DNA from: Squalus acanthias
Taxonomy: Eukaryota
Direction: 5' to 3'
Assembly: GCA_030390025.1 (NCBI GenBank)
Contig: CM059434.1
Coordinates: 33,852,001 to 33,916,000 of the forward strand
DNA: 64,000 nt
The notes beneath the pieces are model-generated. The model did no database searches, had not been told where the DNA came from, and saw only the letters and a list, made by a program, of their open reading frames with translations. Shown piece after piece: positions 5,398 to 61,733 of this stretch (position 1 is its first letter; each line of letters starts with the position of its first letter). The translations under genes were made by a program, and so were the position numbers.

Positions 5398-7134
5398 GTC
5401 GATAATACTAGCAGATCTGCTATGAGGTTGCTCATACACTAAAGTGTGTATCTGAACTTGACGGCTAAACTGTGACAAGAACAAAGTGTGATAAATACAG
5501 AAAGTGAATGATAAATGCAAAACTTTTAATATATTATAGAACTAAGGGGTAAAAATTTGTTTCAGGCCATTTTCGGGCCCAGGCTCAGCACTGTGGAGGT
5601 AGCACACGCCCGAAGCAAGAGGCCCAAGAATCGAAAGAAATTGGTCCTCAGGCCTCGTCTGAATAATGGTGGTGATCTGCTGGGGTTGGTCGTGCCTCCA
5701 CAGGCAGCTCGCCCGACAGGAGACATCAATTTCGAGCCGCCTGCTTTGGCAGCAGTGGCAGTCAGATAAGTCCTGGGAGGAAGGTTGGAGCAGGGTACAG
5801 AGAGGGGGAGGGACTCCTAAGGAGTCGAGGGAACACTCCTGCTTCTCCTAGATCCACAGGAAGATGTTTCTTTTAAGAACAAAATTTTTTAATGTGTACC
5901 TTTGGTTGCCAGATGCAAGGGGCCGCTGAAACAGGGCAGGTTCTGCTAGTAATGTATATAGATAAAAGTTTTATGGTGTGTTAGTTACATTTTAGGTGTC
6001 ACCAAAGTCACAATTCTGCATCACACTTTCAAAAAAATATAAAAAGAGAGAAAGAGCATATAAAAAGAGAGAAAACTAACGATCACCGATGTACAGAGAA
6101 TCTTCCCTACCAACAGACATATCTTGTCATTGATTTCAGGAACTAAGCTTTAAAAAAATATAAAAATACAAAGGAAGCCACTCTGACTACGAATTGACCT
6201 GAGGATCTGTCGAAGAACAATTGGTAATTGACCGAGGAAGGCACAGCAACTGTACCTCATCGCCTTAAAAGAACACACTAAGTTATACACAGCTGCCCTT
6301 TCTCAGCAGGATATGGTACGTTGCATGCCTTACATGGTAGTATTCTCCTGCCCTTATAAAACAGTAAGTCTTCTGTCCTGACTTAATGAGCACCACAGGC
6401 GATCCACTAGTAACTCTAAACAAATCAAGTCAAATTAATTGATGACTTAGGAGCTTAGTGACCTATTCCAAATTGCTTAAAAAAATCTTATTTCTGTGAA
6501 ACAGCACAGTAATCACTTACTCCCATTTATCTTCCATTCCCATTGTAAAAATAATCACAAATAAGTATAATATTAAGCATTTTTACATTATTTGCCAAAA
6601 CAAATCAATAATTGGCTGGATAAGAATACAGAAAAACACAGCAAAGCACCACAATTGATATTGTGATGTGAATCAACTGGTAATGAGAATCATCACCATC
6701 TCCCTTCTATCAATAAACCTGCCATTGTGAATTCTGCATTCAGAAAATATTATCCACTCCTTCATCTGACAAAATGGCCTGTTATTTAACATGTTATTAT
6801 CTTCCCCACTTTTCTTTCACATCTAAGCAAAGAATCTAACCAACATTCTTGCTTTCTGTGAATATCTAACATGGTCCAAACAAGATAGAAAGGTTCAATC
6901 ACTTGTGAGCGCTTTCTATTCTGGCTGCAGTTGACACATATATGTATCAACTGAGCCTGTCCAACACTACACTGACCACATTCCCTTGATAATACAGTTG
7001 GGACTTTTTCACCAACGCCAACTCTGCTTACCAAGCTTGGCCATGATAAGCCCAACTGCCTACACAGCACAGACTGTTCACAGTCTCCTGTGGTTAAAGA
7101 TACTTAGAACCAATTTCAGCTCCAATAACTCAGC

Positions 7135-10100
7135 TTAAAAATTAATGGAATCATCTTCAGGTATTGTGTTATCTTGGCTGATTACTTCAGGTGGTACAGA
7201 TGCACACTTTTCATGTTTTAATGCATTGTGTGCGTCCATGAACCTCTGTAAATATTTTGAAGTGTACAACCAGTGATGCTTCAAAATGTCTTCCAGCTCA
7301 TAGCTTTTGGACTGCCTTGCATTCATCTTCCTGAAACGCCGAAAAAGCTTGTTGCCTGATTCATTCCCTTCACTTGCCCACGCGCCTATAGAGCCATCTC
7401 TTTCAATGATCTCAGGGACATGAGCCAAAGTCTTATGTAGGTAGTTGGTGATCTTCCCTTCATATCTGTGCTTGAACTCTGTACGGAGCAGTTCTCCAAA
7501 TCTCTGGGAATTAAAGCTGTACTGGCAAAGAAGATCTGGGCATTCTGTAGCTGGAAATGTGGAACGCCACACTGGTTTCATAAGAATGTAAAGGTGCATT
7601 AACTCCCTGAGAATTGCTCGCCTTTCTTCAGATGGAATCAATTCACACACAGCTTCTACAGTCTCTTTGGTCATCAGCTTTCTTGCAAAGTTTCCATTCA
7701 ACCTCATGACAGGTTTCAAGTTTATCCTTTTTCTTAAGTGTTGATCGAGCATTGCATTCCACCTTTTCCTTTCCATCTTAGATGGATTGGATTTTTTGTA
7801 CAGTTCCCCAATCTCATCCTGGAAGAGTTTGTAGAATTCTGTTGCATTTCCAATGTCACAATGCAAGGCATCTATAGAGGGCTGAGTTTCAATAAATGGT
7901 TTTGCTGACACCCCCTTCACTCTATCACGTAACTCTTCAGCTGTCTCCTGATATGGATTTGAACGCCAAATTTCATAGCGTTCTAAGTTCTCTTCGTGGC
8001 TTCTTGTTATGGAATGAAGGACCAAATTCTGTGAAGCCTCACTTCGAGTGGCATCACATAATGTGCATACATAGACAGAGCCTGAGGCTTCGAGGCCTTC
8101 AACTTCACGTACAAGCTTCTCATCATACCCTGTGCCTCTAAAGACAAACTGAAATGATCTGGGCAAATCTCCAATTTCAAGGATTAAATCACTAGTCTTC
8201 ATGGCTTTTCTTTCAGTGATTAGTGGGCCCAGTATTGCTGTCAATGTTTCATGGTCAGATTCATCTGCTAGCATTAGGCAAAGTGGTTTGCAGCTCAACT
8301 CAGAATTTGGCTTTAACTCTTCGAATACTTTCACTTCTTCCTTGTTTTCATTCATCACACTTACACTCATGATTGTAAAGGAATACCTCACTGCCTTTTC
8401 TGGAACAGGTGGACCACATCCATGTTTTTCACTGACATCCCCCATTCCATCACAGGATTCCTTGATTACAACAGTAAATGGTCCACTCACAAACTCATCT
8501 ATTTTTTGACATTTTAAACCTTCTAAAATATCGTCCTCAAGATCCTTCACAGCTGAAACAAGTGCCACATCATACCTAAATCGTCTTGAAATTGTCTCCA
8601 TTGGGTAATCATCAACACATTGTGGCGAACCACTCGTACCATCTATTATTCCCACTTCAGTGTTTGTAGAGACATTTGCTAGAGGAGGCTGCCATTCGAA
8701 TGGATAATAACCTGGCAACAATGTTTTCTCTGTATTTCGGAGTGCATGCAATGGCTGGAAGATCTGCTTCCCAGTAGTTGCTTTGACTGTCCTATACATT
8801 TTATGGTACTGACTGCAACTCAGAAATGTATTAACTCTAATGGCAAGACAGACTGCTGGCTTCAATCCTGATCCTCGTCCCTGCATTACAGCCTCCAGCT
8901 CATCTGCTTGCCTGTGCTCATTTCCAGCTCTCAGTGCCAGCAAAAACAGAGTAAGACAAACTGACTTTACATCGCCACCTTCTTCTTTGTCTGCAAAAGC
9001 CTTCACCTGAAGTTTGAGATCTCGCAGGCGATGTTTTTGAGCTCTTCGGGTTAAAGACAGCAAATGTTGCCTCGGACGGCCACCCTTGTTTATTGGTGAG
9101 TAAGCATGCTTCATTCTTGTTTCTTTGTGATTTTGGGCATGGTCAGGATATTCACCTAGTCTTACCTCCGCCTCACAGTCTGTCACTGGACATTTTAGAA
9201 CTAGTAAATTGAGAACATTCATGAATGATTTAACTGGGCTTATGAACTCTGTAGGACTACAAGGAAACCTACAAACTGGACAATACTTGCCCAGGACTGC
9301 AGTACATTTGAGAATACATGTTCTGCAGAAAAGGTGCTTGCATGGTGTTTGCACAGGGTCAGCCAGTAAGTGCTCACATACCTGACATGACACTGACTGG
9401 ATAAAGTTATTGGGATAATCAAGTACAAGGAGTTTCGAACTTAGGTGGATCTTCTTGCAGTTGACAATCTTTTTAGCCAACAAAATACTTGTACTATTAA
9501 TTTGATCTTTTCTTTTAGTAACTCTTGGTCTGCTTGGAGCATCAACTGCTACTTTGGGCTTCTTTGTGACTGGTGGACTTCGTTTGAGACCTTTTCGTTT
9601 GCGAGTCCCATTTGAAAAGTTGCAAATGCTGCAAAGATTGGAATGTGGCTTCCACTGAACAATTGTGCTGATAGGAAAGAATGCATCTTCATTAGTTGTG
9701 TTGTTGATTGTCTGAATGACAATCCGCCAGCAGTTGTAGCAGAAGTGGGTGGGATATCTGGCTTCGGTATCTGTCTTGACATCTATCCTAAATGTGTTAT
9801 GAATGAGTTTTGGCCAAAAACTGTCTCCGTATCCCATTTTCCTGAGAACCTCTTGTGTGACATCATCAACAGGTCCACTAACCGGGTATTTCATGTCATA
9901 ACTGTTGGTGTTAAAGGAAGCTCCACAAATGCGACAGAGATTTTGTAATCGTAATATATGATCTTCCAAAGATTTTGTTTCCATTTGGCTAAAGTCACAG
10001 AACTTGGTTTTTGGTGGGTTGACCTCTAAAGGCATGTGTTCCAGGGACTTATCTTCCAAAGTCTTCTTGTCCAAAGGCAATGTTTCCAAAGGCATAGTTC

Positions 10101-10185
10101 CCACTGGCTTCATTTGAGAGAATGAGGATTGCCACAGTAGGCCATGAACTGGCATAACAGTCTCTGTCTCAAAAGGCTTTGCCAT
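7135..10185 (-). CDS. RAG1: V(D)J recombination-activating protein 1, 1016-aa uninterrupted ORF; true N-terminus uncertain
   Basis: N-terminal CRIC...FCYNC region, C3HC4 RING (CQVC...CKHLFCRTC...CPVC), zinc finger A (CPVTDC...H...H), nonamer-binding [14 protein letters not shown] triad ([22 protein letters not shown]), zinc ligands CTLC and YLHKTLAH, acidic tail. No introns in the CDS. Confidence 0.98.
9960..10110 (-). repeat. Degenerate 15-nt (5-aa) tandem repeat in the RAG1 N-terminus
   Basis: Peptide [30 protein letters not shown]...ETKSL-ED; TCCAAAG-like motifs recur at 15-nt spacing on the + strand. Confidence 0.6.
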
Positions 10186-10211
10186 TGAAACCGGGGCTTC
10201 CTTTTGGACAT

Positions 10212-10280
10212 TTATGAAGGCCTTGTTTCTGAATGCCTAAAATCTTCAGGTATTATTTGCAGAGGCATCTCCATTTCCAT
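10212..10280 (-). other. Short 22-aa [25 protein letters not shown] at the expected RAG1 start, out of frame with the main ORF
   Basis: ATG lies 13 nt after the acceptor ctctgttag|GTACC (exon starts at 10293). TAA at 10214-10212. The frame differs from the ORF starting at 10185. Confidence 0.75.
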
Positions 10281-10525
10281 TAGACATCGGTACCTAACAG
10301 AGATATAAAAAGTGATTATTGATTAAAACAGGATTACAGTTCAACAGCTTCAGGAGCAACACAGTCAGCTTTATATTCAGTGTTAATTTACAACTCCTAC
10401 ATTTTAATCTTTCATTATTCAGATTGCTGCAGTTCACAATGTTAGGTCTGTGCTAAAATTGGGTTTTTGATTCGGTCTGGTCTGTAAAAGACCATCAATA
10501 AAAGACCATCACACCCAATACGAGG

Positions 10526-10684
10526 AGGGTAATGTTAACATAACACGCCTGGCGGGAATCTGGCAGGGTCGGGTAAGCCGCTCATTTTACACTCAATGAA
10601 GTGTAAATTCGGGCAGGGTGTAAAACGGGCAGCCGACCCCATCCTCTTCATTTCCCGCTGGGCGGGTTAGGTTAAAGTTACGCC
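10526..10684. mobile_element. Small palindromic MITE in the RAG1 intron
   Basis: Ends GGGTAATGTTAACATAACACGCCTGGCGGGAA and TTCCCGCTGGGCGGGTTAGGTTAAAGTTACGCC form an imperfect inverted repeat of about 30 bp. Confidence 0.6.
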
Positions 10685-12608
10685 GAAGATCTTTTGATGA
10701 TGAAAGACATATAATTTGAAAAAAATATAGAAAAAATTATCAGTTAGTACAAGAGTTTTATTTTGTACATTTAAAATTCTCAGGGCAGATTTCATAGGCC
10801 AAAGCTCACTTTTGCTTCTTTATAAATACACAGGAATACATAAAAGTGACAACGCGAAAACAGACCCAACCAGTCGGGGTTTACCCTCCACACAGCTAAA
10901 TAGCTCTACTCACATTTACCCGCCATGTTCCCATATCCCTTCAACTTAAGATAATTTCCTTAGGTTAGAATACAAAACAGAATTGACTAAAAAGCAATCA
11001 CATAACGCAAACGGGCCTCGCTGCTGCCTGCTAATTGGCTATAGAAGATAGGAGCAGGAGTAGGCCATTCAGCCCCTCGAGCCTGCTCCTTTTATCAGTG
11101 GTATCTGCCATCAATATACACAAAAGATGCTACTGCTGACTTGAGTGTTTAACAAAGGACAGAAAACCAAAGGTTTGTGGAAATAAGTTTTAAATTGTCA
11201 CAAAATTAATAACAACTGCAATTGTCAGACTGTGGTAAAATATTTTCCCTTAGGTTAGAGTGACTCAAATCTGTAAAAATGATCTCAGTCTTAAGATTCA
11301 CTCATTACCCCGAAGATCTTTTAATGATGAAACACACAAAATCGCATTTTGTGCAATGAGATTAACACACTTTCAGTTATTGATGTAGTCCTCAGGGGTA
11401 ATATTTTGATTTCTATTCCATGGCTACAGACACGCAGTAATGTTGTATCATCTGCAATGTATCAAGCCGTTTTTGCACTGGGAATTTATGTCTATTGGAA
11501 GTACTGTAGATATAGGACTGCACTGAAGGGAATATTGCTTGAGATTCATAACAGCCATCAGTAGTATGTTGCACTCTGCACAGATCGTAGCCTGGATTTC
11601 AACTAGCTTGCTGGAAGGGAAAGGCTACAAGATGATACAGTTGCACCACCTGGCCTGTAAAACCAGTACAGCACATCTTAAGTTTTTACAATATTTTTCA
11701 TGTCATTTTACACAACTAACCAAAGAACACAGTTAGTGTAAGAAGTCTGCAGTGATCATTTTTGAAATTGGTACAATACAACATATTTGGCATGTCCCAA
11801 ACTCCAGTGCTACCATGCCAGAGAGTCACTGGTAACAGAAAATATTGGCTTCCATTGACAACTACACATTCAAAAGCTTCACAACCTAATCAAGCCCACT
11901 TTCATAGAGATTAACGGGGATGGGTTTGGACTTTTTAAAAACTTGATACACCAAAGATAAGCATACTGTAACCTTGTACTACACTTTGTGTGGGATATAT
12001 TTTACAGATGTTAATACTAAAGTACAGTTTAAACTATGGTATAAGGACTTTCCGTAGAAGCAGGCAACAAACTGAATGGAAGAATAGTTCTGCCTACTTT
12101 CTCAAAAATTAGTAATCTGTGGTATATTTTAAAGAAATTAGACCCCACCATTTCATAAAAAATGATCTATTTCTGCATCTTCCATGCCATCTCTCCTCAC
12201 TTTTCTTAGAGCTCCTTCTAATGTAAAATGTAATGAAACTGCAGTATACTCGGCTGTCCAGTGCATGAGTTAGGAAAGCAGCAGTCAATTGAAAAACAGA
12301 AACATATTCTTTTTGATGCACATTCCTTTACTATGTCTTACTTTAAAATACTCAAAAAAGCATCTAAATATAAAATCAATTGAACCAACCATGTGATGTT
12401 TCAACTCCTTACATCCCTACCTACTAGTCTATATTATACTTATTCCACATAATAATAAACAAGTATAAGGTATATATGCCATGGCAGGAATCTTCAGTAA
12501 CCTTTAGCGATACAGCTTAGGAAAGATAAACTTACAGCAACATGGCTCTAAACTAAGTTAAATCAGTTGTTGCACAAGTACTGATAGCGGTGCCATTCTC
12601 TACATTAC

Positions 12609-13354: not shown

Positions 13355-15109
13355 GGCTGTGATTTTGCATCCCGAGGCGGGCTAAGTGCGGCCAAGGTAG
13401 GTGGCGGACGGCGCCCCGCTCCCGATTCCATCCCGCTTTGTGAGAAGAATTTTCCATTGATTGGGCTTGTTAAGCCCGCCCTGCGCGTTTCCCAGCCAAT
13501 TGAAGGAAGCGGGTCTGATGACATCACTTGATGACGCGTCATCAGCCGGTGTCCTTAAAGGGACCATTCGCAAATTTATTTTGATAGTTGTGCTATCTAC
13601 AGCATTGAGGTGCTGCAAACACTGACAAGCACTGCACAAAGGTGCACGGCTGCACCCAGGCTCTCCCATGACACCCTCCATATGCTTATGGAGGGAGTCA
13701 CAGCATGCAGGGAGGTTCTCTTCCCTTCCCATGGGAAGAAGAGACCTCCCCAGGAGACCAACACAACCTGGTTGCACATTGCACAGAAGGGCACAAGCAG
13801 GGATGTGGTCAGGAGGACCTGGGTGCAGTGGCGCAAACCTTTCAATGATCTCAGTAAATGACGAAACATTACTGCAAAGCCACACTCAACCTCATCTGGT
13901 GTGCCTCTCATCACATCCCCATTACTCTGCCTTCCCTACCCTACTCCTGCACATCCTTACTCACATCAACTTACCTTGCACCTCCACCCATCCCTCTCTA
14001 TCTACATTATCAGTTCCCCATCTCACTAGCCACCCCTCACACTCACCCTCATCCTAGTCCAATCATACCAACTAACAACACACAAGGGTGCTTTAGCCAA
14101 TGTTCATGTAAAGTTTCTGTTAATGTGGTGTCAAACTTTGAAATCTTTATTTTCAGCACTTTGCGTTCTTGGACAGATTTGTGCTCACCTTTGGAAGTGG
14201 CTTAGTGAGTTGCAGTGAATGGTGAGACATAGCGGTACCCCCGCAATGGTGATGAGTGTGAAAGGAATGGCTTGGACATTGTAGGCATGCTTTATGGTGT
14301 TGGTGTGGGGTGGTGCCAACCTGGCGCATCATGTGGCAGCCAGGGTGTACAGCATCAAGTGCAGTAAATCTGGCCATGGTGAGGTCATCCTGGGCCTCCC
14401 AGGCAGCAATGTGGTTGGGAACTGATGCCCTGTGTCCTGTGCAGCATCAGTTGATTGCGGGGAAGTTTGGTGTTGTTGTTGGTGCTGCTGGTGCTCCTGG
14501 TGTTGGGGCTGATCATGGTGGGATTCTGAGGACCAAGGTGAAATAGTTTCAAGGGCACCGATGCTGATGGAATAGATGACAGGTGAGGTTGAGATGACAG
14601 AAGCGATCTGTCAATGGTGAGAGAGGTTGTTCCATTGAGGTGACACTGGATAGAGAGTTTGCTCCAAACACTTGCACGCTGCATAAAGCTCAATCTGTCT
14701 TCCAAATGCAGTAAGCAACAGCTTCTGACCTTGGAAAGTGAACAGCTGTGAGATGGGAGCTTTTATAGCACATTTGCAGTTGTCAAGTAAAGAAACGATA
14801 TCATGGTGAGACAACTCCCGACCTGCTTGCCTGATGTGATCCCCGAGCAGCGGGGAACCCATGGGCGACCTCGTAAAATTTAAAGGTGAGCTCAAAATAG
14901 TTTTTAAGTGTCTGTTAACAAGTTCGTAATCATCTAAATTGCCTCCCACGCCACTTGGTGTCGGGTCTGTTCAGTGATGACAGAGCTGACATCTGCGAAA
15001 CTAGCGTGGCGGCGGGTTGACAGCGGGTTCCTTGTCAGCTGTCAAAAAAAAATGTTCCCACCCGACCCGCCACCAAACATGCCCACTGACCCTCCGAAAA
15101 ATTCCCCCC
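13355..15109 (+). mobile_element. Non-autonomous Harbinger family A, copy 2 (inverted relative to copy 1)
   Basis: Colinear with the reverse complement of 478-2221. Starts GGCTGTGATTTTGC. ORF 13610-13861 carries the Myb/SANT-like APRLSHDTLHML...RRTWVQWRKPFNDL. Confidence 0.8.
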
Positions 15110-18960: not shown

Positions 18961-20645
18961 AGGAAAGGCAAAAGCATTTGCAACCATCCTCAGAAATAAG
19001 TAGCGAGTAGATGATCCTTCTCTGCCTCCTGCTAAGGTCCCAACCGTAATAGATGCCAATCTTCAGCGAAATTGATTCACGCCACGTGACATCAAGAAAC
19101 AGCTGAGTGCCTTGGATACAGCTATGGGCCAAACGACTTCCTGGCTGTAGTCCTGAAAACTTGTGCTCCAGAACTAGCCATACCCCTAGCTGTTCCAGTA
19201 CAGTGACAACACTGGCATTTACCTGGCAATGTGGAAAATTGCCCAGGTATGTCCTTTCCACAAAAAGCAGGACAAATCCAACCCGTCTAATTTTAGTTTC
19301 ATTCCACCAGGGCCGTCTAATTACCGCTCCATCAGCCTACTCCCATTCATTATCAAAGTGAAGGAAGGAAACGCCACGAGCATTATCAAGCAGCACTTAC
19401 TCACCTATAACCAGCTCACCGATGCTCAGTTTCACTTCACCAGGGCCACTCAGCTCCAGACCTCATTAAAGCCTTTGTCCAAACATGGACACGAGAGTTG
19501 AATTCCAGAGGTGAGGTGAAAATGACTGCCCTTGACATCAAGGCAGCATTCGACCAAGTGTAGTACCAAGGAGCCCCATTAAAATTGAAGTCAATGGGGA
19601 TCAGGGGGAAAACTCTCCAGTGGCTAGAGTCTTAACTGGCTCAAAGGAAGATGCTTGTGGTTATTGGAAGCCAATCATCTCAGCCCTAGGACATTGCTGC
19701 AGGAGTTCCTCAGGGCAGCATCCTAGGCCCAATCTTCACCTGTTTCATCAATAGGTCAGAAATGAGGATGTTCGCTGATGACTGCACAGTGTTCAGCTCC
19801 ATGCACAACTCCTCAGATAATGATGCCGTCCATCCCCGCATGCAGCAAGACCTGGACAACATTCAGGCTTGGGCTGATAAGTGGCAAGTAACATTTGCAC
19901 CATATAAGTGTCAGGGAATAATCATCTCAAACAAGAAAGAGCTTAACTACATCCCCTTGACATTCAATGGCATTACCATCGATGAGTCCCCCACCATTAA
20001 TGGGTCACCATTGACCAGAAACTCAATTGGGGTAGCCACATATATGCTGTCCCTACTAGAGCAGGTCAGAGGCTGGGTATTCTGTGGAGAGTGGCTCACC
20101 TCCTAACTCCCAAAGCCTCTCCACCCACAAGGCACAAGTCAGGAGTGTGATGGAATACTCTCCATTTGCCTGGATGGGTGCAGCTGCAACAACATTCAGG
20201 AAGCTCGACACCATCTAGGACGAAGCAGTCTGCTTGATTGGCACCCCAACACAGGCTTAAATATCCATTCCCTCCATCACCAGCATAGCACGGCTTGCAG
20301 TGTGTACTAGCTACAAGATGCACAGCAACAAGTCACCAAGGCTTCTTCAGCAGCACCTCCCAAATCCATGACCTCCACCACCTAGAAGGTCAAGGGCAGC
20401 AGGTGCATGGGAGCACCATCACCTCCAAGTTCCCCTCCAAGTCACACACCATCCTGACTTGGACATATAAAAGCGTTCTTTCTTGTCACTGTGTCAAAAT
20501 CCTAGAGCTTCCTACCTAACAGCACTATGGGAGTACCTTCACCACATGGACTGCAGCAGTTCAAGAAAAAGGCGCACCATCACCTTCTCAAGGACAACTA
20601 GGGATGGGCAATAAATGCCGCCCTTGCTAGCAATGCCCACATCAG
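18960..20645 (+). mobile_element. Second LINE family (CR1/L2-like clade), decayed RT and 3' end
   Basis: ALDIKAAFD, GVPQGSILGP, MFADDCTVF, WADKWQVTFAP. 3' end GCAATAAATGCC...GCCCACATC. Related pieces at 5085-5170, 44745-45205 and 52690-53470. Confidence 0.8.
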
Positions 20646-20744: not shown

Positions 20745-22690
20745 GGGAGTAAAAATACACAAATCATTAAAGTAGCGGCGCACGTTAATAAGGCCATTAA
20801 AAACACAAACCAAGCACTGGGGTTTATTTCTAGTGGGATAGAATTGAAAAGTAGAGAAGTTATGATAAACTTGTATCGAACCTTAGTTAGACCACACTTG
20901 GAGTACTGCATACAGTTCTGGTTGGCATATTATAAAAAGGGTATAGAGGCACTGGAGAGGGTACAAAAACGATTTACAAGGATGATACCAGAACTGCAAG
21001 GTTATACCAATCAGGAAAGAATGAACAAGCTGGGTCTCTTTTCTCTTGAAAAAAGAAGGCTGAGGGGTGACCTAATAGAGGTCTTTAAAATTATGAAAGG
21101 TTTTGATAGAGTAGATACAGAGAGATTGGCTGCAATTTCTCCTAACTCAGCGGGTTTGGTGCGGCCGGGGTCGGTGGCGGGGTGCGACCTGCTGCTGGCT
21201 TCAGCCCGCTCTGTGAAATGATTTTACGCTGATTGGGCTTGTTAAGCCCGCCCAGCGTGTTTCCCGGCCAATTGAAGGAAGCGGGTCTGATGACATCATC
21301 AGCCAGTTTCCTTAAAGGGACCATGCGCAAATTGATTTTGACAGTTGTGCTGTCAGTGTTCTACAGCACTGAGGTACTGCAAACACTGACAAGCACTTCA
21401 CAGAGGTTCACGGCTGCACCCAGGCTCTCCCATGACTCCCTCCATATGCTTATGGAGGGAGTCACAGCATGCAGGGAGGTCCTCTTCCCTTCCCATGGCC
21501 AGAAGAGACCTCCCCAGGAGATCAACGCAGCCTGGTTGCACATTGAACAGGAGGACACAAGCAGGGATGTCGTTAGGAGGACCAGGCTGCAGTGGCGCAA
21601 ACCTTTCAATGATCTCAGCAGATCACGAAACGTTACTGCAAAGCCACACTCAGCCTCATCCTCCTGTGCCACTCATCACATCCCCATCACTCTGCCTTCC
21701 CTACCCTTCTCCTGTACATCCTTACTCACACCAACTTACTGTTGCACCTCCACCCATCCCTCTCTATCTACATTATCAGTTTCCCATCTCATTAGCCACC
21801 CCTCACACTCACCCTCATACTTGCCCAATCATACCAAGTAACAACACACAAGGGTAAGCACTTGGGTGTTTTAGCCATTGTTCATGTGAAGTTTCTGTTA
21901 ATGTGCTGTCAAACATTGAAATCTTTATTTTCAGCATTTTGCGTTCTTGGACAGATTTGTGTACCCACTGCAATGGCAATGAGTGTGAAAATAATGGCTT
22001 GGACATTGTAGGGATGCTTTATGGTGTTGGTGTGGGGTGGTGCCAACCTGGCACATCATGTGGCAGCCAAGGTGTACAGCTTCAAGTGAAGTAAATCCGG
22101 CTATGGTGAGGCCACCTCTGGCATCCTGGGCAGCAATGTAGTTGGGTGCTGATGCCCTGTGTCCTGTGCAGCATCAGTTGATTGCGGAGAAGGTTGGTCT
22201 TGTTGTTGGTGCTGCTGGTGTGCCTGGTGCTATTGGTGTTGGGGCTGATCGTGGTGGGATTCTGAGGACCAAGGTGAGATAGTTTCAAGGGCACTAATGC
22301 TGATGGAATAGATGGCAGGTGAAGTTGAGCTGACAGAAGTGATCTGTCAATAGTGAGAGAGGTTGTTCCAATGAAGCGACACTGGATAGAGAGTTTGCTC
22401 CAAACACTTGTAAGCTGCATAAAGCTCAATCTGTCTTCCAAATGCAGTAAGCAACAGCTTCTAACCTTGGAAAGTGAACAGCTATGAAATGGGAGCTTTT
22501 ATAGAAAGTTTGCAGCTGTCAAGTTAAGAAATCATCCCATGCTGACACTAGCATATGAGGGAGAAGGGAATAGAGGATAATGCTGAAATAGTTAGATGAG
22601 GAAGGATTGGAGGAGGCTCGCATGGAGCATAAACGCTGACATGGGCTGTTTGGGCCAAAAGGCCTGTTTCTGTGCTGTATATTCTATTTA
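20745..22690 (+). mobile_element. CR1 3' fragment (20745-21127, 22549-22690) containing truncated Harbinger family A copy 3 (21128-22547)
   Basis: ORF 20844 reads KSREVMINLYRTLVRPHLEYC...KGFDRVDTER, then the GGCTGCAATTTC terminus and sequence colinear with copy 2. The CR1 3' UTR resumes near 22549. Confidence 0.8.
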
Positions 22691-26100: not shown

Positions 26101-29100
26101 TCAGAAGGCAGTGGGACCAGATAGCCGTGGAGGTCAATGCCAGGAGTCAACCCCCGAGGACCAGGATCCAGTGCTGCAAGAAATTCAATTACCTCACATG
26201 AGTGGTCAAAGTCAGTGAATGCATCTTCAAATGCCATATCCTACCAACTGCGCCACTAGCCTCAGCTACTGCTCAATTCATCACATCCCCAGCACTCACT
26301 TATCAACAATCTCTATCAATCAGGCTTCATACCTAACATTCATATGCTTCACCTCGCCCTCACACACTTAGCACTGCTACAAGCCTCACACACACATTTC
26401 ACAGCTTGCACACACTGCCAGCTATTCAACCTTGACAGGCACATCACCTAAACTCATTGCACCACACTCACTGACACACTTCCCTCTCTCTTGCAGGACA
26501 AGGTGGTGCACAATCGGAGGCAGCAGGAGCTAACTGGTGGGGGTCAGGTGCGCCTGCATGTTCTAACCCCCATGGAGGAGACGGTGCTGGCCATTATTGG
26601 AACGGCTGTTGCTAAGGACATGGCCAATGGCGGGGCTGAAACCATTGAAGATGACAGTATCTTCATACATAATACCTAATACTCTCTCTCTCACATCCCA
26701 CTTCCCCCTCGTCCAACAATCTCTTATGATTTACAAGCTGCAGATGATGTAATAATGCCCCCCTCCCCTCACCACAACCGTACCCTTGTGCCTTTTTCCT
26801 TTCAGATACCCAAGAACAACAACCTGCCCAGGCAGTGGTGGAAGAGCAAGAAGACAGTGATGATGAAGACAAACTGTCACTCGATTTCACACTCGCAGCC
26901 ACCCGCTCAGGTATTCACACTGCGCGTAATTTAGAGGACAGTATAGAGGCAGAGCGGCAGTGGTGGCACACGGAAGACAGGCACTTAGGGGGATGCACAG
27001 GGTGATTAGTTTACATTTGTATACAATATGGCATGCTTTGATTTGTAAATTTGGTTTGGAATGTTTATTTTGTGCTGGCTGTTATTTTTGCATTGTGGCC
27101 AAGCGGACGCTGTGATGGTCAGTGATAGAGGGAAGGTAAGGTGTGAGACTGTTGGTGAATGGGGAATTGGGATTGGGGTTACTAGTATCGCACTCGGGTG
27201 AGTTCTTCACGCACACCCCGGGCNNNNNNNNNNNNNNNNNNNNNNNNNNNNNNNNNNNNNNNNNNNNNNNNNNNNNNNNNNNNNNNNNNNNNNNNNNNNN
27301 NNNNNNNNNNNNNNNNNNNNNNNNNNNNNNNNNNNNNNNNNNNNNNNNNNNNNNNNNNNNNNNNNNNNNNNNNNNNNNNNNNNNNNNNNNNNNNNNNNNN
27401 NNNNNNNNNNNNNNNNNNNNNNNNNNNNNNNNNNNNNNNNNNNNNNNNNNNNNNNNNNNNNNNNNNNNNNNNNNNNNNNNNNNNNNNNNNNNNNNNNNNN
27501 NNNNNNNNNNNNNNNNNNNNNNNNNNNNNNNNNNNNNNNNNNNNNNNNNNNNNNNNNNNNNNNNNNNNNNNNNNNNNNNNNNNNNNNNATAGCTGGTGGC
27601 AAGAGCTGGGCCCTCATGATGGCGAGGTTGCGCAGCGTGCCGCAGACCACTACGAATCTTGACACCCGCTCTGCCGAGTACTGCAGGGCTCCTCCAGAGC
27701 GGTCCAGACAGCACAAGCGTTGTTTCAGCACGCCAATGGTCTGCTTTATCACATTGCGTGTGGCAGCATGGCTTTCATTGTATGCATGCTGTGCACGTGT
27801 GCATGGGTTGTGCAGTGGAGTCATGAGCCGTGTCATCGGCACGAAGCCCTTGTCGCCCAGTAGACATCCTTTGGTTTGTCTTGGTGGCTCAAATGTATAT
27901 GGTACAGCGGACTGCCACAGAATAAAAGCATTATGACTGCTGCCAAGATACATAGAAACATAGAACATAGAAACATAGAAAAATAGGAGCAGGAGTAGGC
28001 CATTCGGCCCTTCGAGCCTGCTCCACCATTCGATATGATCATGGCTGATCCTCTATCTCAATACCATATTCCCGCTCTCTCCCCATACCCCTTGATGCCT
28101 TTTGCATCTAGAAATCTATCTATCTCCTTCTTAATTATATTCAGTGACTTGGCTGCCACAGCCTTCTGTGGTAGAGAATTCCACAGGTTCACCACCCTCT
28201 GAGTGAAGAAATTTCTCCTCATCTCAGTCCTAAATGTCCTACCCTGTATCCTGAGACTGTGACCCCTCGTTCTAGACCCCCCAGCCAGGGGAAACATCCT
28301 CCCTGCAGCCAGTCTGTCTAGCCCTGTCAGAATTTTATACGTTTCAATGAGATCCCTTCTCATTCTTCTAAACTCTAGTGAATACAGGCCTAGTCGACCC
28401 AATCTCTCCTGTGATATAATACTGGGCATTGACCTGCATGATATGGTGCCTATATTTGCACACCAGCTGGAAGTTGAAGGAGTGGAATACCTTTCGGTTG
28501 CGGTACATCTCAGAGTTGACATGTGGTGCCGGCAAAGCGATGTGCATGCAGTCAATGGCACCCTGCACCATGGGTAGGCCTGCAATCCTAGCAAAGGCGC
28601 ATGCCCGCTCTACCTGCTGGTCTCTGGCAAGAGAGAATGAAGTGTAGTCGGCTCTCTTTCAATAGAGAGCCTCAGTGGCCTCCCTTACGCAACAGTGGAT
28701 GGCAAATTGCGAGGTGTTGCAAATACCTCCAGCTCCAGCCCGGAAGGAGCCAGACATATAAAAGTTCAGTGACACGGTCACCTTCACAGCCATTGGCAAT
28801 GCGGTCCTTGCCCTGCTCTGAGGTTGCAGTTGTGGCTGCAGCAGGTGGCAGATTTCAGTGAGGCCGTCCTTACTCAAGTGTAGACGTCTTGCACATTGTT
28901 CCTCGCTGAGGTTCAGGTAGGAGAACTGTTACCTGAACACCCTGGGAGGATATGACCTCCTGCTGAGAGCCCTTCTCCCCCTCCTCCTTCTTCTAGCAGC
29001 TTGACCTGCCCTGCGTGGCCTCTGTTCATTCTCCAGCCATGCTGTATTCCAAGGGGAATTCCTACTAGTGCACCCATGTCTGGCAGCAAGTGGTTTGTGC

Positions 29101-44744: not shown

Positions 44745-47700
44745 TCATTCATGGGATGTGGCTGTCGTTGGCAAGCCCAGCATTTATTGCCCACCCCTAA
44801 TTGCCCTTGAGAAGGTAGTGGTGAGCCGCCTTCTTGAACCGCTGCAGTCCGTGTGGTGTTGGGATGGAGTTCCAGGATTTTGACCCAGCGATGATAAAGG
44901 AACAACAATATATTTCCAAATCAGGATGGTGTGTGACTTGGAAGGGAACTTGCAGGTGGTGGTGTTCCCATGTGCCTGCTGCTCTTGTCCATCTAGGTGG
45001 TAGAGATCATGGTCTTGGAAGGTGTTGTTGAGTTGCTGCAGTGCATCTTGCAAATGGTACACACTGCAGCCACGGTACGCCGGTAGTGGAGGGAGTTAAT
45101 GTTTCAAGTGGTGGATGGGGTGCCAATCAAGCAGGCTGCTTTGTCCTGGATGGTGTCGAGCTTCTTGAGTGTTGTTGGAGCTGCACTCATCCAGGCAAGA
45201 GGAGAGTCATAGAGTCATACAGCACAGAAAGAGGCCCTTCGGCCCATCGTGTCTGCACCAGCCATCAAGCCCTGTCTATTCTAATCCCATTTTCCAGCAC
45301 TTGGTCCATAGCCTTGTATGCTATGGCATTTCAAGTGCTCATCTAAATGCTTCTTGAATGTTGTGAGGGTTCCTGCCTCTACCACCCTTTCAGGCAGTGA
45401 GTTCCAGATTCCAACCACCCTCTGGGTGAAAAAGTTTTTCCTCAAATCCCCTCTAAACCTCCTGCCCCTTACCTTGAAACTATGCCCCCTGGTTATTGAC
45501 CCCTCTACTAAGGGGAAAAGTTCCTTTCTATCTACCCTATCTATGCCCCTCATAATTTTGTACACCTCAATCAGGTCTCCCCTCAGCCATCCCTGTAAGG
45601 GTTTTTGTCTCTCAGCCTGTGAGATTCGTGTGGCTCTGTGCAGCCCGGGTGCTAGTGCGGGTTTAGGCCTTGTTGCCTGTTCTGGTCTCCAGCCAGTCTG
45701 GGAGCACTAGACACACCTGTGAGTGGTTCGACCCACTCGCCCTTACGGTTCTAGACACTGGACTTAGATGCGAGAGCAGTAATGGAGATGAAACTCAGGT
45801 AGACTCGGTTGAATGGTACGAAATGGAAAATCTTTATTGCATAATATTTAAGATTACGAAATACATGTCATAAGCACAGATTAATGACAGTACAATCTTA
45901 CACGCAGTTATGTAATTAATTTCAGGGAAACGAGGAACGAACGACACATCGTAAATGGGGGCACACATTACAATTATCCTTAATACTTAAAACCCTCCCC
46001 TATCAATATCTGTCCTAAGCTAGATTCGTAGGATTCGAGACTCATGCTCACCACTCGTGATAACTCGGAGAATTCCGAAAACTCTGATCGGATGTTTTTC
46101 ACCGCAGCGCCCACGTGTCGATCAGGGGGTCTCCTGGCCCCACTTGTTTACTCGTTTCTGCTCCGGCTAGCAGGCTGGAACGTCTGCTGTCATGAAGATC
46201 TGTGTTGTCCTCGGAGTTCTGACACTGCTCAAAGAAGAGTCTTCCTGTGCCCTCACACCGGTTCGATAAAATTCGAAAAATAGTCTTCCTGTGCCAGTTC
46301 TGTAGAACTCAAAGAAGTCTTCCTGGCAAGGAAAATGTCTATTCGACCTACAGGCGCGGTCGGAGCTTACTGACCGTGGCGATAAGTATGGTCTTCTTCT
46401 CTTCTCATCTCATCTCATCTCATCTCATCTCATCTCGGGCCTTCGGTTCCAACACCGTTTACCGACTTATCGGGATGGTGCGCCCGCTTCAAGGATTCAG
46501 AGCCCAGTTCGTCAAACAGGAACAAGACGGCGAGTCAAGAGCAGCCACGAGGATAAGAGTCAAGAGTCAAGAGCCAAGAATAAGAGTCAACCGAATAAGA
46601 GAGAGATGGACGGTTTGGAGCTTGCAATTATAGTACAAAATCTTCCGTTTCCCGCCCAACCTTAATGTCTTTTCTTTTGTTAGGGTTTGGCGCTCAAATG
46701 TCTTGTATAGGGTGATCTTCGTTTTAATGGGTTTCGGGGATACTCGTAATTGTCTGAGTACCTGTTAATATTTCTACCATTGTTTAATCGGTCGGTGTTC
46801 TCCCTGGAGGGGTTTTGGGGCTTCCAAGTGTTTTCTGTAACTACCCGCTAATGGCTCTCTCATCGTAGAGTCGTTGGGATTTTACATATTAATGTCTTTG
46901 GATGGGTTCTTGATTACTTGGTACAATAGCTCTTATTCGCACCTGGGAGACCGATTTCAGTATTTATGTGTAGACTGTAAACCCATGATGTCTCGTGTAT
47001 TATCTTAGATGTGCTGAGTCTTAATCGATCTTGCACAAATGTTTATTGGAACGCCATCTTGTCTGCCTGTCGAAAAGTCTAGAATGTTCTGTCACGAGGT
47101 GCGGCGGCCATTTTACAAGCTGCTTGTGTCCACTTTGAAAACCTGACAGCATTCTGCTGAAATAAAAGCTGTTTGAACGAAACTCTGTGTTTTTCTCCTT
47201 ATTAATAAAATCGCGATATATTGCGAATTCTACAAAGGAAAACAACCCCAGCCTGTCCAGTCTCTCTTCATAGCTGAAGCGCTCCAGCCCAGGTAACATC
47301 CTGGTGAATCTCCTCTGCACCCTGTCCAATGCAATCACATCCTTCCTATAGTGTGGCGACCAGAACTGCACACAGTATTCCAGCTGTGGCCTAACTAGCG
47401 TTTTGTACAGCTCCATCATAACCTCCCTGCTCTTATAGTCTATGCCTCGGCTAATGAAGGCAAATATCCCATATGCCTTTTTAACCACCTTATCTACCTG
47501 TCCTGCTGCCTTCAGGGATCTATGTACAGGCACACCAAGGTCCCTCTGATCCTCTGTCCTTCCTAGGGTCCTACCATTCATTGTGTAGTCCCTTGCCTTG
47601 TTAGTCCTCCCAAAATGCATCACCTCACACTTTTCAGGGTTAAATTCCATTTGCCACTGTTCTGCCCATCTGACCAACCCGTCTATATCGTCCTGTAGCC

Positions 47701-47900
47701 TGAGGCTTCCCTCCTCGTTATTTACCACTCCACCAATTTTCGTGTCATCTGCGAACTTACTGATCATACCTCCTACATTCATATCTAAATCATTAATGTA
47801 CACTACAAACAGTATTCCATCGCACTCCTGACTTATGGTGGAAAGGCTTTGGAGAGTCAGGAGGTGAGTCACTCGCCACAGAATACCCAGCCTCTGACTG
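44745..47900 (-). mobile_element. Nested cluster: second-family LINE (44745-45205, 47810-47900) > CR1 (45206-47810) > LTR (45594-47234)
   Basis: ORF 47021-47872 (YINDLDMNVGGMISKFADDTKIG...) and ORF 45281-45565 (YKIMRGIDRVDRKELFPL) are two parts of one CR1; its tail AGTCATAGAGTCAT is at 45206. Confidence 0.8.
45594..47234 (-). mobile_element. Probable solo LTR (about 1.64 kb), ERV- or Gypsy-type
   Basis: TGTA...TACA termini. Minus-strand TATAAT near 46630 and AATAAA near 45835. A homolog with the same TGTAAGGG end starts at 63355. No coding sequence. Confidence 0.65.
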
Positions 47901-48184
47901 TACTAATTTAGCAGGTTCTCCTTTACTTTCTGGCTCTCCTTTGCTTTGTTAGCTGTGTTTTTTGCTTTTACCGGTGCCATTGTTCTCCACTATAAATCAA
48001 ACCAGTCAAACTAGTTGCATTCCTAATCTGATGAATCTGTCTTGAGTGATGATCTCCACCTCCTCAATGTGTCTGATATATCTCTCTCTCTGGATCTTGT
48101 GCAATGTATATCTCTCTATCTGGATCTTGTATGTAATTTGAGTGTGTACAAACCCTGGTTCTATACAAATAATTCATCACTAAA

Positions 48185-55930: not shown

Positions 55931-57795
55931 GGACCGTATTTTTAGATCCCTACGGGTGTGTATGAGGTGTGTACACACCCGTAGGGACATCGGAAATGTC
56001 GATTTCAGGCATGCGAAGTGCATGCGCTTAAAACCAGCATTTCCGATGTCAAGAATCCTCTTGACAGATCAGATGCCTGCCCTGGAGAAGGGCCTCCGCG
56101 GGTGGAGAGTTCCACTTTCTGCAGAACCTCCGCCCGCTGAAATCACTTAAAACATAGAAAAATAGGAGTAGGCCATTCGGCCCTTCGAGCCTGCTCCGCC
56201 ATTCAATATGATCATGGCTGATCCTCTATCTCAATACCATATTCCCGCTCTCTCTCCATACCCCTTGACGCCTTTTGCGTCTAGAAATCTATCTATCTCC
56301 TTCTTAAATATATTCAGTAACTTGGCCGCCACAGCCTTCTGTGGTAGAGAATTCCATAGGTTCACCACCCTCTGAGTGAAGAAATTTCTCCTCATCTCAG
56401 TCCTAAATATCCTACCCCGTATCCTGAGACTGTGACCCCTCGTTCTAGAGCCCCCAGCCAGTGGAAACATCCTCCCTGCATCCAGTCTGTCTAGCCCTGT
56501 CAGAATTTTATACGTTTCAATGAAATCCCCTCTCATTCTTCTAAACTCTAGTGAATACAGGCCTAGTCGACCCAATCACTCCTCATAGGACAGTCCTGCC
56601 ATCCCAGGAATCAGTCTGGTGAACCTTCGCTGCACTCCCTCTATGGCAAGTATAACCTTTCTTAGGTAAGGAGACCAAAACTGCGCACAGTACTCCAGGT
56701 GTGGTCTCACCAAGGCCCTGTATAACTGTAGTAAGACATCCTTGCTCCTGTACTCAAATCCTCTTGCAATGAAGGACAACGTACCATTTGCCTTCCTAAC
56801 TGCTTGCTGCACCTGCATGTTTGCTTTCAGTGACTGGTGACACCCAGGTCCCTTTGTACATCAACATTTCCCAATCTATCACCATTTAAATAATACTCTG
56901 CCTTTCTGTTTTTCCTACCGAAGTGGATCACTTCACATTTATCCACGTTATACTGCATCTGCCATGTATTTGCCCACTCACTCAACTTGTCGAAATCGCC
57001 TTGAAGCCTCTTTGCATCCTCTTCACAACTCTCAATCCCACCTAGTTTCGTAACGTCAGCAAACTTGGAAATATTACATTTGGTTCCCTCATCCAACTCA
57101 TTGATATATATTGTGAATAGCTGGGGCCAAAGCACTGATCCCTGCGGTACCCCACTAGTCACCGCCGGCCACCCTGAAAAAGACCCATCTATTCCTACTA
57201 TCTGTTTCCTGTCTGTTAACCAATTTTCAATCCATGCCAGTATATTACCCCCAATCCCATGTGCTTTAATTTTGCACACTAACCTCTTATGTGGGACTTT
57301 AAGGCCTGCTTTTACCAGCATAAGAGTTTTAAAAAGTTTTTTTTTTTAATTTCACTCATTTATAATTTTAAAATACTTAAAAAAAAAGTTTATTTTTAGC
57401 CCTGTAAAAAACTAATTTTTTTCTCAATATTAAATTTGTTTAAAATATTTAATTTAATGTAATTTTAACTCATTTTAAAAACGTGATTTAAAAAAAATGT
57501 ATTTAATGTTTTATTGTCTTTTTTCAGTGATCCCCATTCAGATATTTGACAGGTCTACCTGTCAAATGTTTGAAGGGAGATTCCCTTCTCCCATTGGCTT
57601 GCCTGGCCCACGTGATCCCAGGGACGCTTGCGAACCGCCTGTGCCCCTGGGATACCTGGGCCCTGCGTATTTCGACTGTGGAGAGGCCCAGCATCGGAAG
57701 TGGCCGGACCTCGGGAGCCCTCAGGTAAGGGCGTAGATTTTTTCCCGATAGGAGGCATCCGCACGCAGGAAGCCTCCTATCGGAAATTACGGGCC
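55931..57795. mobile_element. Family C-related MITE containing a younger CR1 (56151-57297, minus strand)
   Basis: TIRs GGACCGTATTT / AAATTACGGGCC. Inner ORFs 56231-57321 are CR1 RT and C-terminal sequence (GVPQG, SKFAD, RPHLEYC). Confidence 0.75.
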
Positions 57796-59128
57796 ATTGT
57801 CTTTCCATATTAGTCCTCCCAAAGTATATCACCTCACACTTCACCGCATTGAACTCCATCTGCCATGTTTCTGCCCATTCACCATCCTGTCTACGTCATC
57901 CTGAAGCCTATAACTATACTCATCACTATGTACTACTCTGCCAATTTTCGTATCATCTGCAAACTTTATAATGCTGCTCCCTACACCAGAGTCTAGGGTC
58001 ATTCATAAAAATTGACAGACCTAGAACTGGCCCTTGGGGAACACCACCTCCCAGTCTGAAAAACATCCATCCACCACCATCCTTTGCTTCCAGTCACTGA
58101 GCCAATTTTGTATCCATACCGCCACTTACCCCTTAATTCCATGGGCTTCCATCTTCTTAATATATCTCCTGTGTGACACTTTGTCGAATGCCTTCCGAAA
58201 GTCCATATATACACACACAACATCTACTTGATCAACCTTCTCTGTTACCTCATCAAAAATTCAATCAAGGTAGTCAGACATGATTTGCCTTTAACAAATC
58301 CAAGCTGGCTCTCCTTGATTAACCCATGCCTTTCCAAATGAAAGTTTATTTTGTCCCTGATAATGGCTTCCAATAACTTCCCCACCACCGATGTTAGGCG
58401 AACTGCCTGCAGTTTCCTGGTTTTTCCCACTCCCCTTTCTTGAATAATGGTATAACATTAGCAAACCTCCACTCCTCCAGCACTACACCTGTATCCAATG
58501 AGGATTGAAAGATTGTGATCACTGCCTCTGCTATTTCTACCTTTGCTTCTTTCAGCAACCTCAGATGCATTCCATCTGGACCAGGTCACTTATCAACTTT
58601 CAGTAATGCTAATCTTTTTAGTACATCTTCTCTATCTATTACTATCCTGTCCATAACTTCCCTCTCCTCTTTTAGTGTAACCTTCATATCATCTGTGTCC
58701 TTTGTGAAGACAGATGCAAAGTACTCATTTAATACTTTTGCCATGTCCTCTGACTCTAGATGAAGATTTCCCTTTGGGCCCTTAATAGGCCCAACTTTTT
58801 CCCCAGCTAACCACTTACGCTTTATGGGGGAAAAATTCAGCTAATTATCACCACTGATTGGAAACTTCACTTTTAACGCCCCGGGAGGTGATTGGAGTGC
58901 TAAATCAGGCGCTGCACACCTGTCTTAAGGCGCAAAGGCCGAGGAGTGAGGCGTTAACTCAGAGCGCGAGCGCAGCGCAGGTGCTGCCAGTTAGCGAGGG
59001 AACACAGACACACTGGCGCCGGCCAGTTCTTAAAGGGGGGGGGCGATCTTGCTCCCCAGCCACACCCTGCTCATTGCAGCCTTGAATCTCGGCCTGGAGA
59101 GACCTGTGACTACATTTTCCAGCCAAGG

Positions 59129-60918
59129 ATGGAGAGGGTGAGAGAACGAGCTGAGCGCTTCACCGAGCGGGCCTTGGATGCTCTGGTTGGCGCGGTGGAG
59201 CGCCGAAGACCAATACTGTACCCAGAGAGTGGCAGGAGGCCTTTGCCGCGTGACTACAGAAGAGTGTGGAGGGAGGTGGCTCAGCGCGTCTCCTCCAGGA
59301 GCATGGTGGCCAGGACCCATGTCCAATGCCGGAAAAAGTTCAACGACCTCACTCGGGTCGTCAGGGTGAGTGGCTTTTTTGCAATACCTCTCCATCCCTC
59401 CATCTCAACCTCACTCTATGGCCAGAGGGTCTTAAAACCACAATTAACAACACTCATCCAACACCTATGGCCCTTTCATGAAGCACACACACACATTCCA
59501 TACTTTGCATACAGTAAGGGCTATTCACCTATGGGAGGCACATCAGGCAAGACCATGGCTGTATACAGTAAGGGCTATTCACCTATGGGAGGCACATCAG
59601 GCAAGACCATGGCTGTATATTTACTCAGACGCCGTCCTTTTTCTTGCAGGCCAAGCTGGCGCATAATAGGAGACAGCAGCAACGGACGGGTGGAGGGCGG
59701 CCTCAGCTGCAACCCCTCAGCGATCTTGAGGAGCGCGTCCACAGGATTGTGGCAAGCCGGGTGATCGGTCCCGTCGCCACTGGAGACGCCGACCCCGTTC
59801 TGGACAGCAATGGTAAGGTCATCACCTTTTTGTCCTCTGTCCTTCCACTTGTCCCTCACAACACCAGCCTTTGACACTTTCAATCCAACTTACTAACTCG
59901 CTGCACTTATTCCTCCCTTACTGCCACCCTGTCCTCACGCTAAAGCCACTCTTGCACCTCCCTGCTTTCAGATGGTGATTCACCAGCTGAGGAGACGGGC
60001 CCTGAAGCTGCCAGTGGGAGTGAAGCTGCAGCCGAGGAGGAAGAGGAAGCCGGAGCATCAGTGCCACCCTCTCCCGAGGAAGCCCATACCGACACTGGGA
60101 ACACGCCTTCCCTGGAGGGGAGCAGGGGGGAAGGGTCTGATGAGGGTGAAGCTCCAGGACCCAGCGGGCTGCAGCAACGCGATGGGGGTAGGGAAGCTCG
60201 GGGGCCTTCTCCCCGGAGGGAGAGTATGCCAGCGAGTCCTGCTGCACTGGACGCAGAGGAGGAGCGGCTGATCGCGGAAATGAACACCCAGGCGGTGGGC
60301 ATGCACACTGAGCTCATGGCTGCAGTGGGTAGGGTGCCCGAATGCATTGAAGCACTGGCAAGGAGTGTGGAGCACTTCGCTGCAGCGCAGGCGGATGCGA
60401 CACTGAAGCTCAGTGCTGCAATTCAATCTCAGACTGCTCTCATGCAGACTCAGATTGAGGTCACGCGAGCACTGTCTGCTGCCATCCTCGCTGGTTCGTT
60501 CACATTTCCCCGGGGCTCTCACCGCGCCGCAGCAGGCCAGCAATCTGTGCTCCAGCAGATTGCTCCGGATGCTGAGGTGCTGCCCCGTGGGAGTGCCAGT
60601 GTGCCGGTCGAGCAGGGAGTTGCTGTCCTCGCTCAAGATGACAGCATTCCTGCTGCCACCACTGTCACTTCTCCACTGCAGTTGCCACCGCCTGTAGGAC
60701 AGACTGCTGCCGCCCATGCAGAGTTGGTGCAGTCTGCAGCCGGGCCCTCCAGGCCCAGAACTGGTCGAGGCCGTCCCTCAAGGGCATCTGCATTGTCAGG
60801 GCCTGACAGTCAGCAGCCTTCCACCAGCCTTGCTGCAGCCACTGAGGTCCCATTGCGGAGGAGCAGTAGGGTAAGAAGGGGGGAAGGGCGCACGGGAAGG
60901 AGTTCACCCTCGATGTAG
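59129..60918 (+). CDS. Harbinger Myb/SANT-like DNA-binding protein, three exons (59129-59365, 59650-59812, 59972-60918), 448 aa, apparently intact
   Basis: RAERFTERALDALV...W.EVA...RTHVQCRKKFNDL. GT-AG junctions in phase (237+163+947 = 1347 nt). RRQQQRTGGG motif, then an acidic, low-complexity C-terminus. Confidence 0.8.
59510..59617 (+). repeat. Perfect 54-bp tandem duplication in intron 1 of the Myb gene
   Basis: TACAGTAAGGGCTATTCACCTATGGGAGGCACATCAGGCAAGACCATGGCTGTA twice (59510-59563, 59564-59617). Confidence 0.9.
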
Positions 60919-61229: not shown

Positions 61230-61328
61230 CTAGAAGCGGCTTGCTATCAGCCGCTGACGGACGGCCCTTGCAGTTTCACCATTGTGGGCCGCCCTCACGC
61301 CTTGGTGCTGCTGCTGATCATCCTCCTC

Positions 61329-61359
<31 letters not shown>

Positions 61360-61733
61360 GGTGGTGCTCCAAGGCCTGGTGGCATTGGCTGGGTCCTGAG
61401 GATTGCCATGTTATGCAGCATGCAGCACACAACTACGATGTTGGAAACTCGCTCAGGCGAGTACTGCAGGGCTCCTCCAGAATGGTCGAGACAGCGGAAC
61501 CGTTGCTTGAGCACGCCGATTGTGTGCTCCACGATGTTCCTGGTAGCTTGATGGCTCTCGTTGTACCGCAGCTCAGCAGGGGTGTTGGGCGTACGGAGCG
61601 GTGTCATCAGCCAGGTGCTCAGTGGATACCCCTTGTCCCCGAGAAGCCAACCAACTGGCTGATGCGGTGCCTCGAAAAGTTCTGCCACAGTAGTCTGGAA
61701 CAGGACGACGCCCCCCATCAGTGCAGCCCCCAT
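61230..61733 (-). pseudogene. Harbinger (HARBI1-like) transposase with an in-frame internal deletion, 167 aa
   Basis: [11 protein letters not shown] joined directly to ...[11 protein letters not shown]...[38 protein letters not shown]...CCMLHN. The HTH region and the AIDC.H and GS.HD motifs are missing. Confidence 0.8.

Follow-up and report, generated by a model that had tools for sequence, protein, structure and literature searches.

The window (the whole stretch of 64,000 nts analysed here) carries on its minus strand an otherwise ordinary RAG1 gene, coding for 1048 amino acids from ATG 10280, in which one A of a three-A run is missing, most probably because the assembly has an error in its consensus. 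Homopolymer shortening during sequencing or assembly, and not an event in the animal, would have removed this base. ATG 10280 (or 10274 or 10268) would then be the start in use, and the protein, by analogy with other jawed vertebrates, would act with RAG2 as a V(D)J recombinase.

The 5' end of RAG1 in the window

Read as given, ATG 10280 (minus strand) is followed by a frame of 22 codons that ends at TAA 10214-10212. The recombinase frame on the same strand has the stops TGA 10248-10246 and TAG 10239-10237 upstream, is open from 10236 to its stop at 7137-7135, and finds its earliest ATG at 10185, which yields 1016 amino acids. An earlier sequence-only reading had described ATG 10280 as out of frame with the recombinase ORF, and the latter as closed upstream with 10185 as its first usable ATG; every coordinate, both stops and the length are borne out in the window. 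To the ATGs that it listed, two on the minus strand can be added, at 10287 (13 codons, stop at 10248) and at 10211 (33 codons). A splice acceptor preceding the single RAG1 coding exon is predicted at 10294..10313 (minus strand) from a polypyrimidine tract and the AG at 10295-10294, features of the DNA letters only; the putative exon start is G 10293, with ATG 10280 as base 14 of the exon.

The missing base in independent sequencing runs

Twenty of 23 sequencing runs contain all or part of the stretch as Logan contigs, none of them recorded as RNA. Four of the 23 were aligned on 9300-11000: X1 and X5, which are two samples from two studies of the nearest organism (organism A, 99.7 % alike to the window), and X6 and X9, which come from two relatives (organisms B and D). 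The other 19, including X2-X4 (same sample as X1), organism C and X21-X23, were left out of this comparison. The sequence-only reading had named as a refuting result an indel that fuses the short peptide to the long ORF in a single frame, and precisely this was found in the contigs of all four runs: one extra A behind position 10216, such that the window has two A at 10217-10218 (site 10216..10218, plus-strand numbering) where the contigs have three. The depth carrying the extra A equals the total depth in X1 (13.1/13.1), X5 (22.1/22.1), X6 (16.4/16.4) and X9 (9.13/9.13), each run having a single contig that crosses the site with hundreds of bases on either side and all of the depth there, with the proviso that Logan contigs drop variants and minor alleles and that the four runs represent three organism labels and four studies. 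The deletion itself, looked for as a frameshift common to other individuals or relatives, is carried by none of the four.

The X1 contig covers 9300-10942 and differs from the window by four substitutions and this gap only; apart from the missing A, no indel specific to the window was seen in the 1.6 kb compared. For X1 and X5 the list of differences across the site is complete, while X6 has two unlisted substitutions and X9 many. The whole of 10280-10185 is thus shown to be open in organism A and nearly shown to be so in B, whereas for D the evidence is confined to the frameshift site. Judged from these contigs, the alignment shows a one-base deletion apparently private to the sequence of the window.

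Three substitutions, at 9874 (a synonymous change), 10706 and 10710, separate the window from X1 as well as from X5 and show it to be another haplotype, individual or sister taxon. The window also differs from X1 at 10854 and from X5 at 9928 and 10518. At 10710 the window has the base of the relatives, and X1 and X5 share another. The distance between window and X1 (four substitutions) is of the same order as that between X1 and X5 (at least three), and such distances, as far as substitution counts can tell, fit polymorphism within a species.

Between 9300 and 10496, the depth of the single contig stays level in both X1 and X5. The X5 contig has GATC inserted behind 9959 (window 9960-9963), an observation made in one of the four runs. 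We reject it as a second frameshift, since it duplicates a GATC site of the RAG1 coding region in a single run, like a proximity-ligation junction, which it likely is; junctions of the GATC type in contigs are a trap for frame checks. In X9, depth dips at 9927-9983 and 10041-10097, in the region encoding the RAG1 N-terminal part, imply from bin depths gaps of about 6 and about 15 bases, both multiples of three.

The short peptide is the orthologous N-terminus

Sixteen of 24 chondrichthyan RAG1 records reach the frameshift site, and all of them span it in one frame. In tblastn, the alignment of each of these 16 with the window passes to the next frame after roughly the first 21 residues. Residues 1-31 of the Amblyraja protein, for example, match the frame of the short peptide (E value 7e-8 against the 64-kb window), and from there the similarity runs on collinearly in the following frame. 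By these alignments, chance is excluded as the source of the similarity between the short peptide and chondrichthyan RAG1 N-termini. The suggestion that the peptide is the orthologous N-terminus was thus correct, rays as well as sharks having it fused to the recombinase.

RAG1 codons 1-21 accordingly occupy 10218..10280 (minus strand) and run into TAA 10214-10212 in the window, whereas codons 23-32 (10186..10215, minus strand), located upstream of ATG 10185, already share the frame of the recombinase. Residues 1-21 are identical at 19 of 21 positions to both Amblyraja and Leucoraja, and at 16 of 17 to Heptranchias. With 95 of the following 100 residues identical to Heptranchias, residues 1-21 are equally conserved, and ortholog identity gives no sign of decay in these orphaned codons. 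Residues 22-32 are more variable, with 5/11 to 8/11 identical across 12 full-length orthologs. Within the N-terminus, PEDFRH aligns with PDEIQH of bony vertebrates (armadillo and gar rows), a resemblance that had previously been suggested for the human protein.

The motif KFSEWKFKLF, whose absence had been noted, is indeed absent from all three frames of 10420-10050. It does not, however, indicate a loss and carries no weight, because [ED]WKFKLF occurs within the first 60 residues of none of the 24 chondrichthyan records (8 of which begin too far downstream to show it) as compared with 33 of 45 from bony vertebrates. From these protein records, the absence of KFSEWKFKLF is a shark trait and not damage.

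Eight of the 24 chondrichthyan records start downstream of the site (1021, 986, 986, 962 partial, 955, 951, 951 and 577 amino acids), full-length records having 1028-1077. The two may stand side by side within a genus, as for Mobula hypostoma (955 amino acids) and Mobula birostris (1050). Since a third of the records thus begin past the shared N-terminus, public shark and ray RAG1 models are likely often clipped at this end, to judge from their sequences. The nearest named protein, that of Pristiophorus (P0054, 1021 amino acids), begins three residues before the second methionine, but this late start was rejected as proof of a shared truncation: other records start late as well, and the two relatives available at the DNA level keep the base.

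The repaired gene

With the extra A, ATG 10280 opens a frame of 1048 codons without internal stop. Codon 22 then specifies Phe, as in Heptranchias, Heterodontus and Rhincodon. As a control, all single-base insertions in 10186-10277 were considered: 101 of them open the frame, and the peptide that scores best against 10 orthologs is that of the contigs, an insertion at 10220 yielding the identical peptide. Proteins and contigs therefore independently indicate the same repair. The frame from N-terminus to stop is closed in the window as given and open with the base of the contigs.

The 1016-codon remainder of the gene (7135..10185, minus strand; residues 33-1048 of the repaired protein) was characterized by Pfam and by alignment to a solved structure. 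Numbered from ATG 10185, it contains RAG1_imp_bd (63-265), RING (267-305), zf-RAG1 (328-356) and the recombinase (362-1005), all above cut-offs, with 1255 bits for the recombinase core PF12940. D579, D688 and E942 in the same numbering align with D600, D708 and E962 of 9jpu_A, a solved RAG1 chain of 1040 amino acids, and this D-D-E triad is invariant in 12 aligned sequences. In mouse numbering, D600, D708 and E962 are the catalytic residues of RAG1. The gene thus combines the core and its D-D-E triad with the RAG1_imp_bd, C3HC4 RING and zf-RAG1 domains of a jawed-vertebrate RAG1.

The proteins closest to the long ORF are chondrichthyan RAG1s. A tree of 21 rows places the window beside Pristiophorus (94 % identity), with a support of 91/94 that lies below the starred level, and thus makes a squalomorph shark likely. 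The repaired protein is identical at 954 of 1019 positions to that of Pristiophorus japonicus, at 964 of 1044 to Heptranchias perlo, at 937 of 1044 to Heterodontus francisci and at 884 of 1032 to Amblyraja radiata. N-terminus, length and domain order are those of chondrichthyan RAG1, from which the window departs only by the one-base gap. Self-comparison of the window revealed no duplicate of RAG1. No match to RAG2, the convergent neighbour of RAG1 in jawed vertebrates, was seen in 119 of the 122 N-free stop-to-stop ORFs of at least 95 amino acids, the other three overlapping RAG1, in a window that extends only 7.1 kb past the RAG1 stop.

Three in-frame ATGs lie at the start of the repaired gene, at 10280, 10274 and 10268, the best context being that of 10274. 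The ATG at 10287 heads an upstream ORF of 13 codons (10246..10287, minus strand) in which the X1 and X5 contigs have no change, and the ORF is therefore real in organism A. Located 7 nts 5' of the true start, this ATG is in another frame than the 1048-amino-acid protein, which its ORF overlaps. Its context is weak (C at -3, T at +4) and it could mildly damp RAG1 initiation.

Origin of the gap

The deletion is absent from the independent data of the nearest organism and is located in a run of one base. A consensus error is favoured because what has changed is the length of a base run and because an essential gene can, by inference, be expected to have few frameshift alleles. Homopolymer-length errors are given as the commonest residual error of long-read assemblies in PMC8812927, a statement made there for bacterial genomes. 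As counterpoints, three bases make a short run for such an error, the comparison with the contigs turned up no second indel peculiar to the window, and the window is distinct from X1 and X5 at three sites. Of the two interpretations offered by the sequence-only reading, a consensus indel is supported by the extra A in the contigs of all four runs and agrees with the orthologous N-terminus, whereas a lineage-specific truncation, in which the old start would become a dosage-limiting uORF, is not supported: two samples of organism A and two relatives lack the frameshift.

The same three substitutions, which mark a distinct haplotype, also give some room to the unlikely case of a genuine deletion allele, private or rare and probably heterozygous, that lies on the haplotype retained in the assembly. 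Contigs drop minor alleles, so that such an allele might escape notice, although none of the four runs carries the deletion. Ribosomes would then read 22 codons, stop, and might re-initiate at or leak to ATG 10185, giving less RAG1 without its 32 N-terminal residues but with all recognised domains. As the Pfam domains and the catalytic residues all lie downstream of 10185, selection against this allele could be mild. In people, internal methionines have been reported to rescue 5' RAG1 frameshifts (Santagata 2000, as cited in PMC5977236 and PMC4388548). Such a rescue is not assured, however, in view of the lack of activity described for RAG1 R142* (PMC4388548) and of the lack of detectable protein described for an 86-nt deletion in hamster RAG1 (PMC5977236). 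Moreover, the shortening of a one-base run is the typical form of an error, and an essential gene should seldom carry a frameshift.

Highly improbable is a frameshift fixed in a species or population that is sister to organism A, where the ancestral start would have become a uORF and RAG1 would be made from 10185 at a lowered dose. Organism A, although 99.7 % alike, may be another species than that of the window, the base at 10710 is shared with the relatives and not with X1 and X5, and the start of the Pristiophorus model is close to this methionine too. Late starts are nevertheless frequent in automatic gene models, and the window lies no further from X1 than expected within one species. A fixed change would also need a very recent origin, because the base is present in each of organisms A, B and D. 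The orphaned codons, moreover, are without decay. A lineage-wide truncation of RAG1 is refuted. Programmed ribosomal frameshifting, RNA editing and splice bypass are unneeded, and were rejected, because the DNA contigs are already in frame.

Other features of the window

High-copy repeats are found at 10554-10724 and 10896-10952, 300-700 bases upstream of the RAG1 coding exon. Their summed depth rises up to about 600-900 and 6000-8000 in X1, X5 and X6 and is lower in X9, single copy being 9-22. Parts of Harbinger-like transposons are located at 58958-59761 (plus), 61233-61784 (minus) and 13559-13858 (plus), comprising Myb/SANT ORFs and a DDE_Tnp_4 piece that faces a Myb ORF; related Harbinger-like copies, with a similarity of 80-84 %, occupy 558-2126, 13377-15031 and 21150-22548. 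A domain scan of the ORFs also detected RVT_1 reverse-transcriptase fragments at 19690-20103 (plus), 47024-47902 (minus) and 56830-57345 (minus), which are probably decayed LINEs. No host gene besides RAG1 was found among the 119 ORFs scanned. A run of 365 N at 27224-27588 represents a gap or a masked stretch and, for that reason, was discarded as a clue to the assembly method.

Consequences and comparison with known systems

As it stands, the gap matters for annotation only: with this assembly, RAG1 would be modelled with 1016 amino acids or mistaken for a pseudogene, and polishing is called for here. A real and fixed frameshift would provide a natural and viable counterpart of the human 5' RAG1 frameshift alleles, with a re-initiated RAG1 shorter by 32 residues. 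A hypomorphic RAG1 of this kind, occurring naturally in the oldest of the lineages that have V(D)J recombination, would let the dispensability of RAG1 dose and of the extreme N-terminus be tested, but the contigs argue against it. Among the matches listed in a literature search, titles and abstract openings contained no report of a shark in which RAG1 is naturally frameshifted or a pseudogene; a search for RAG1 N-terminal isoforms likewise returned no report.

On paper, the human 5' RAG1 frameshift alleles of Omenn syndrome have the same geometry as the window: an early frameshift, a downstream in-frame ATG and an intact core. In the window this ATG, 10185, lies 26 bases past the stop of the 22-codon uORF. 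The title of the human study (Santagata 2000) links the defect to loss of N-terminal domains, whereas the shark deletion would cost 32 residues and no Pfam domain. Closer to our preferred reading, a consensus error, are the homopolymer frameshifts described for assemblies in PMC8812927 and PMC12007338. These likewise shorten a run by one base, split a conserved gene and are absent from independent contigs, although both papers concern small genomes, unlike the shark window.
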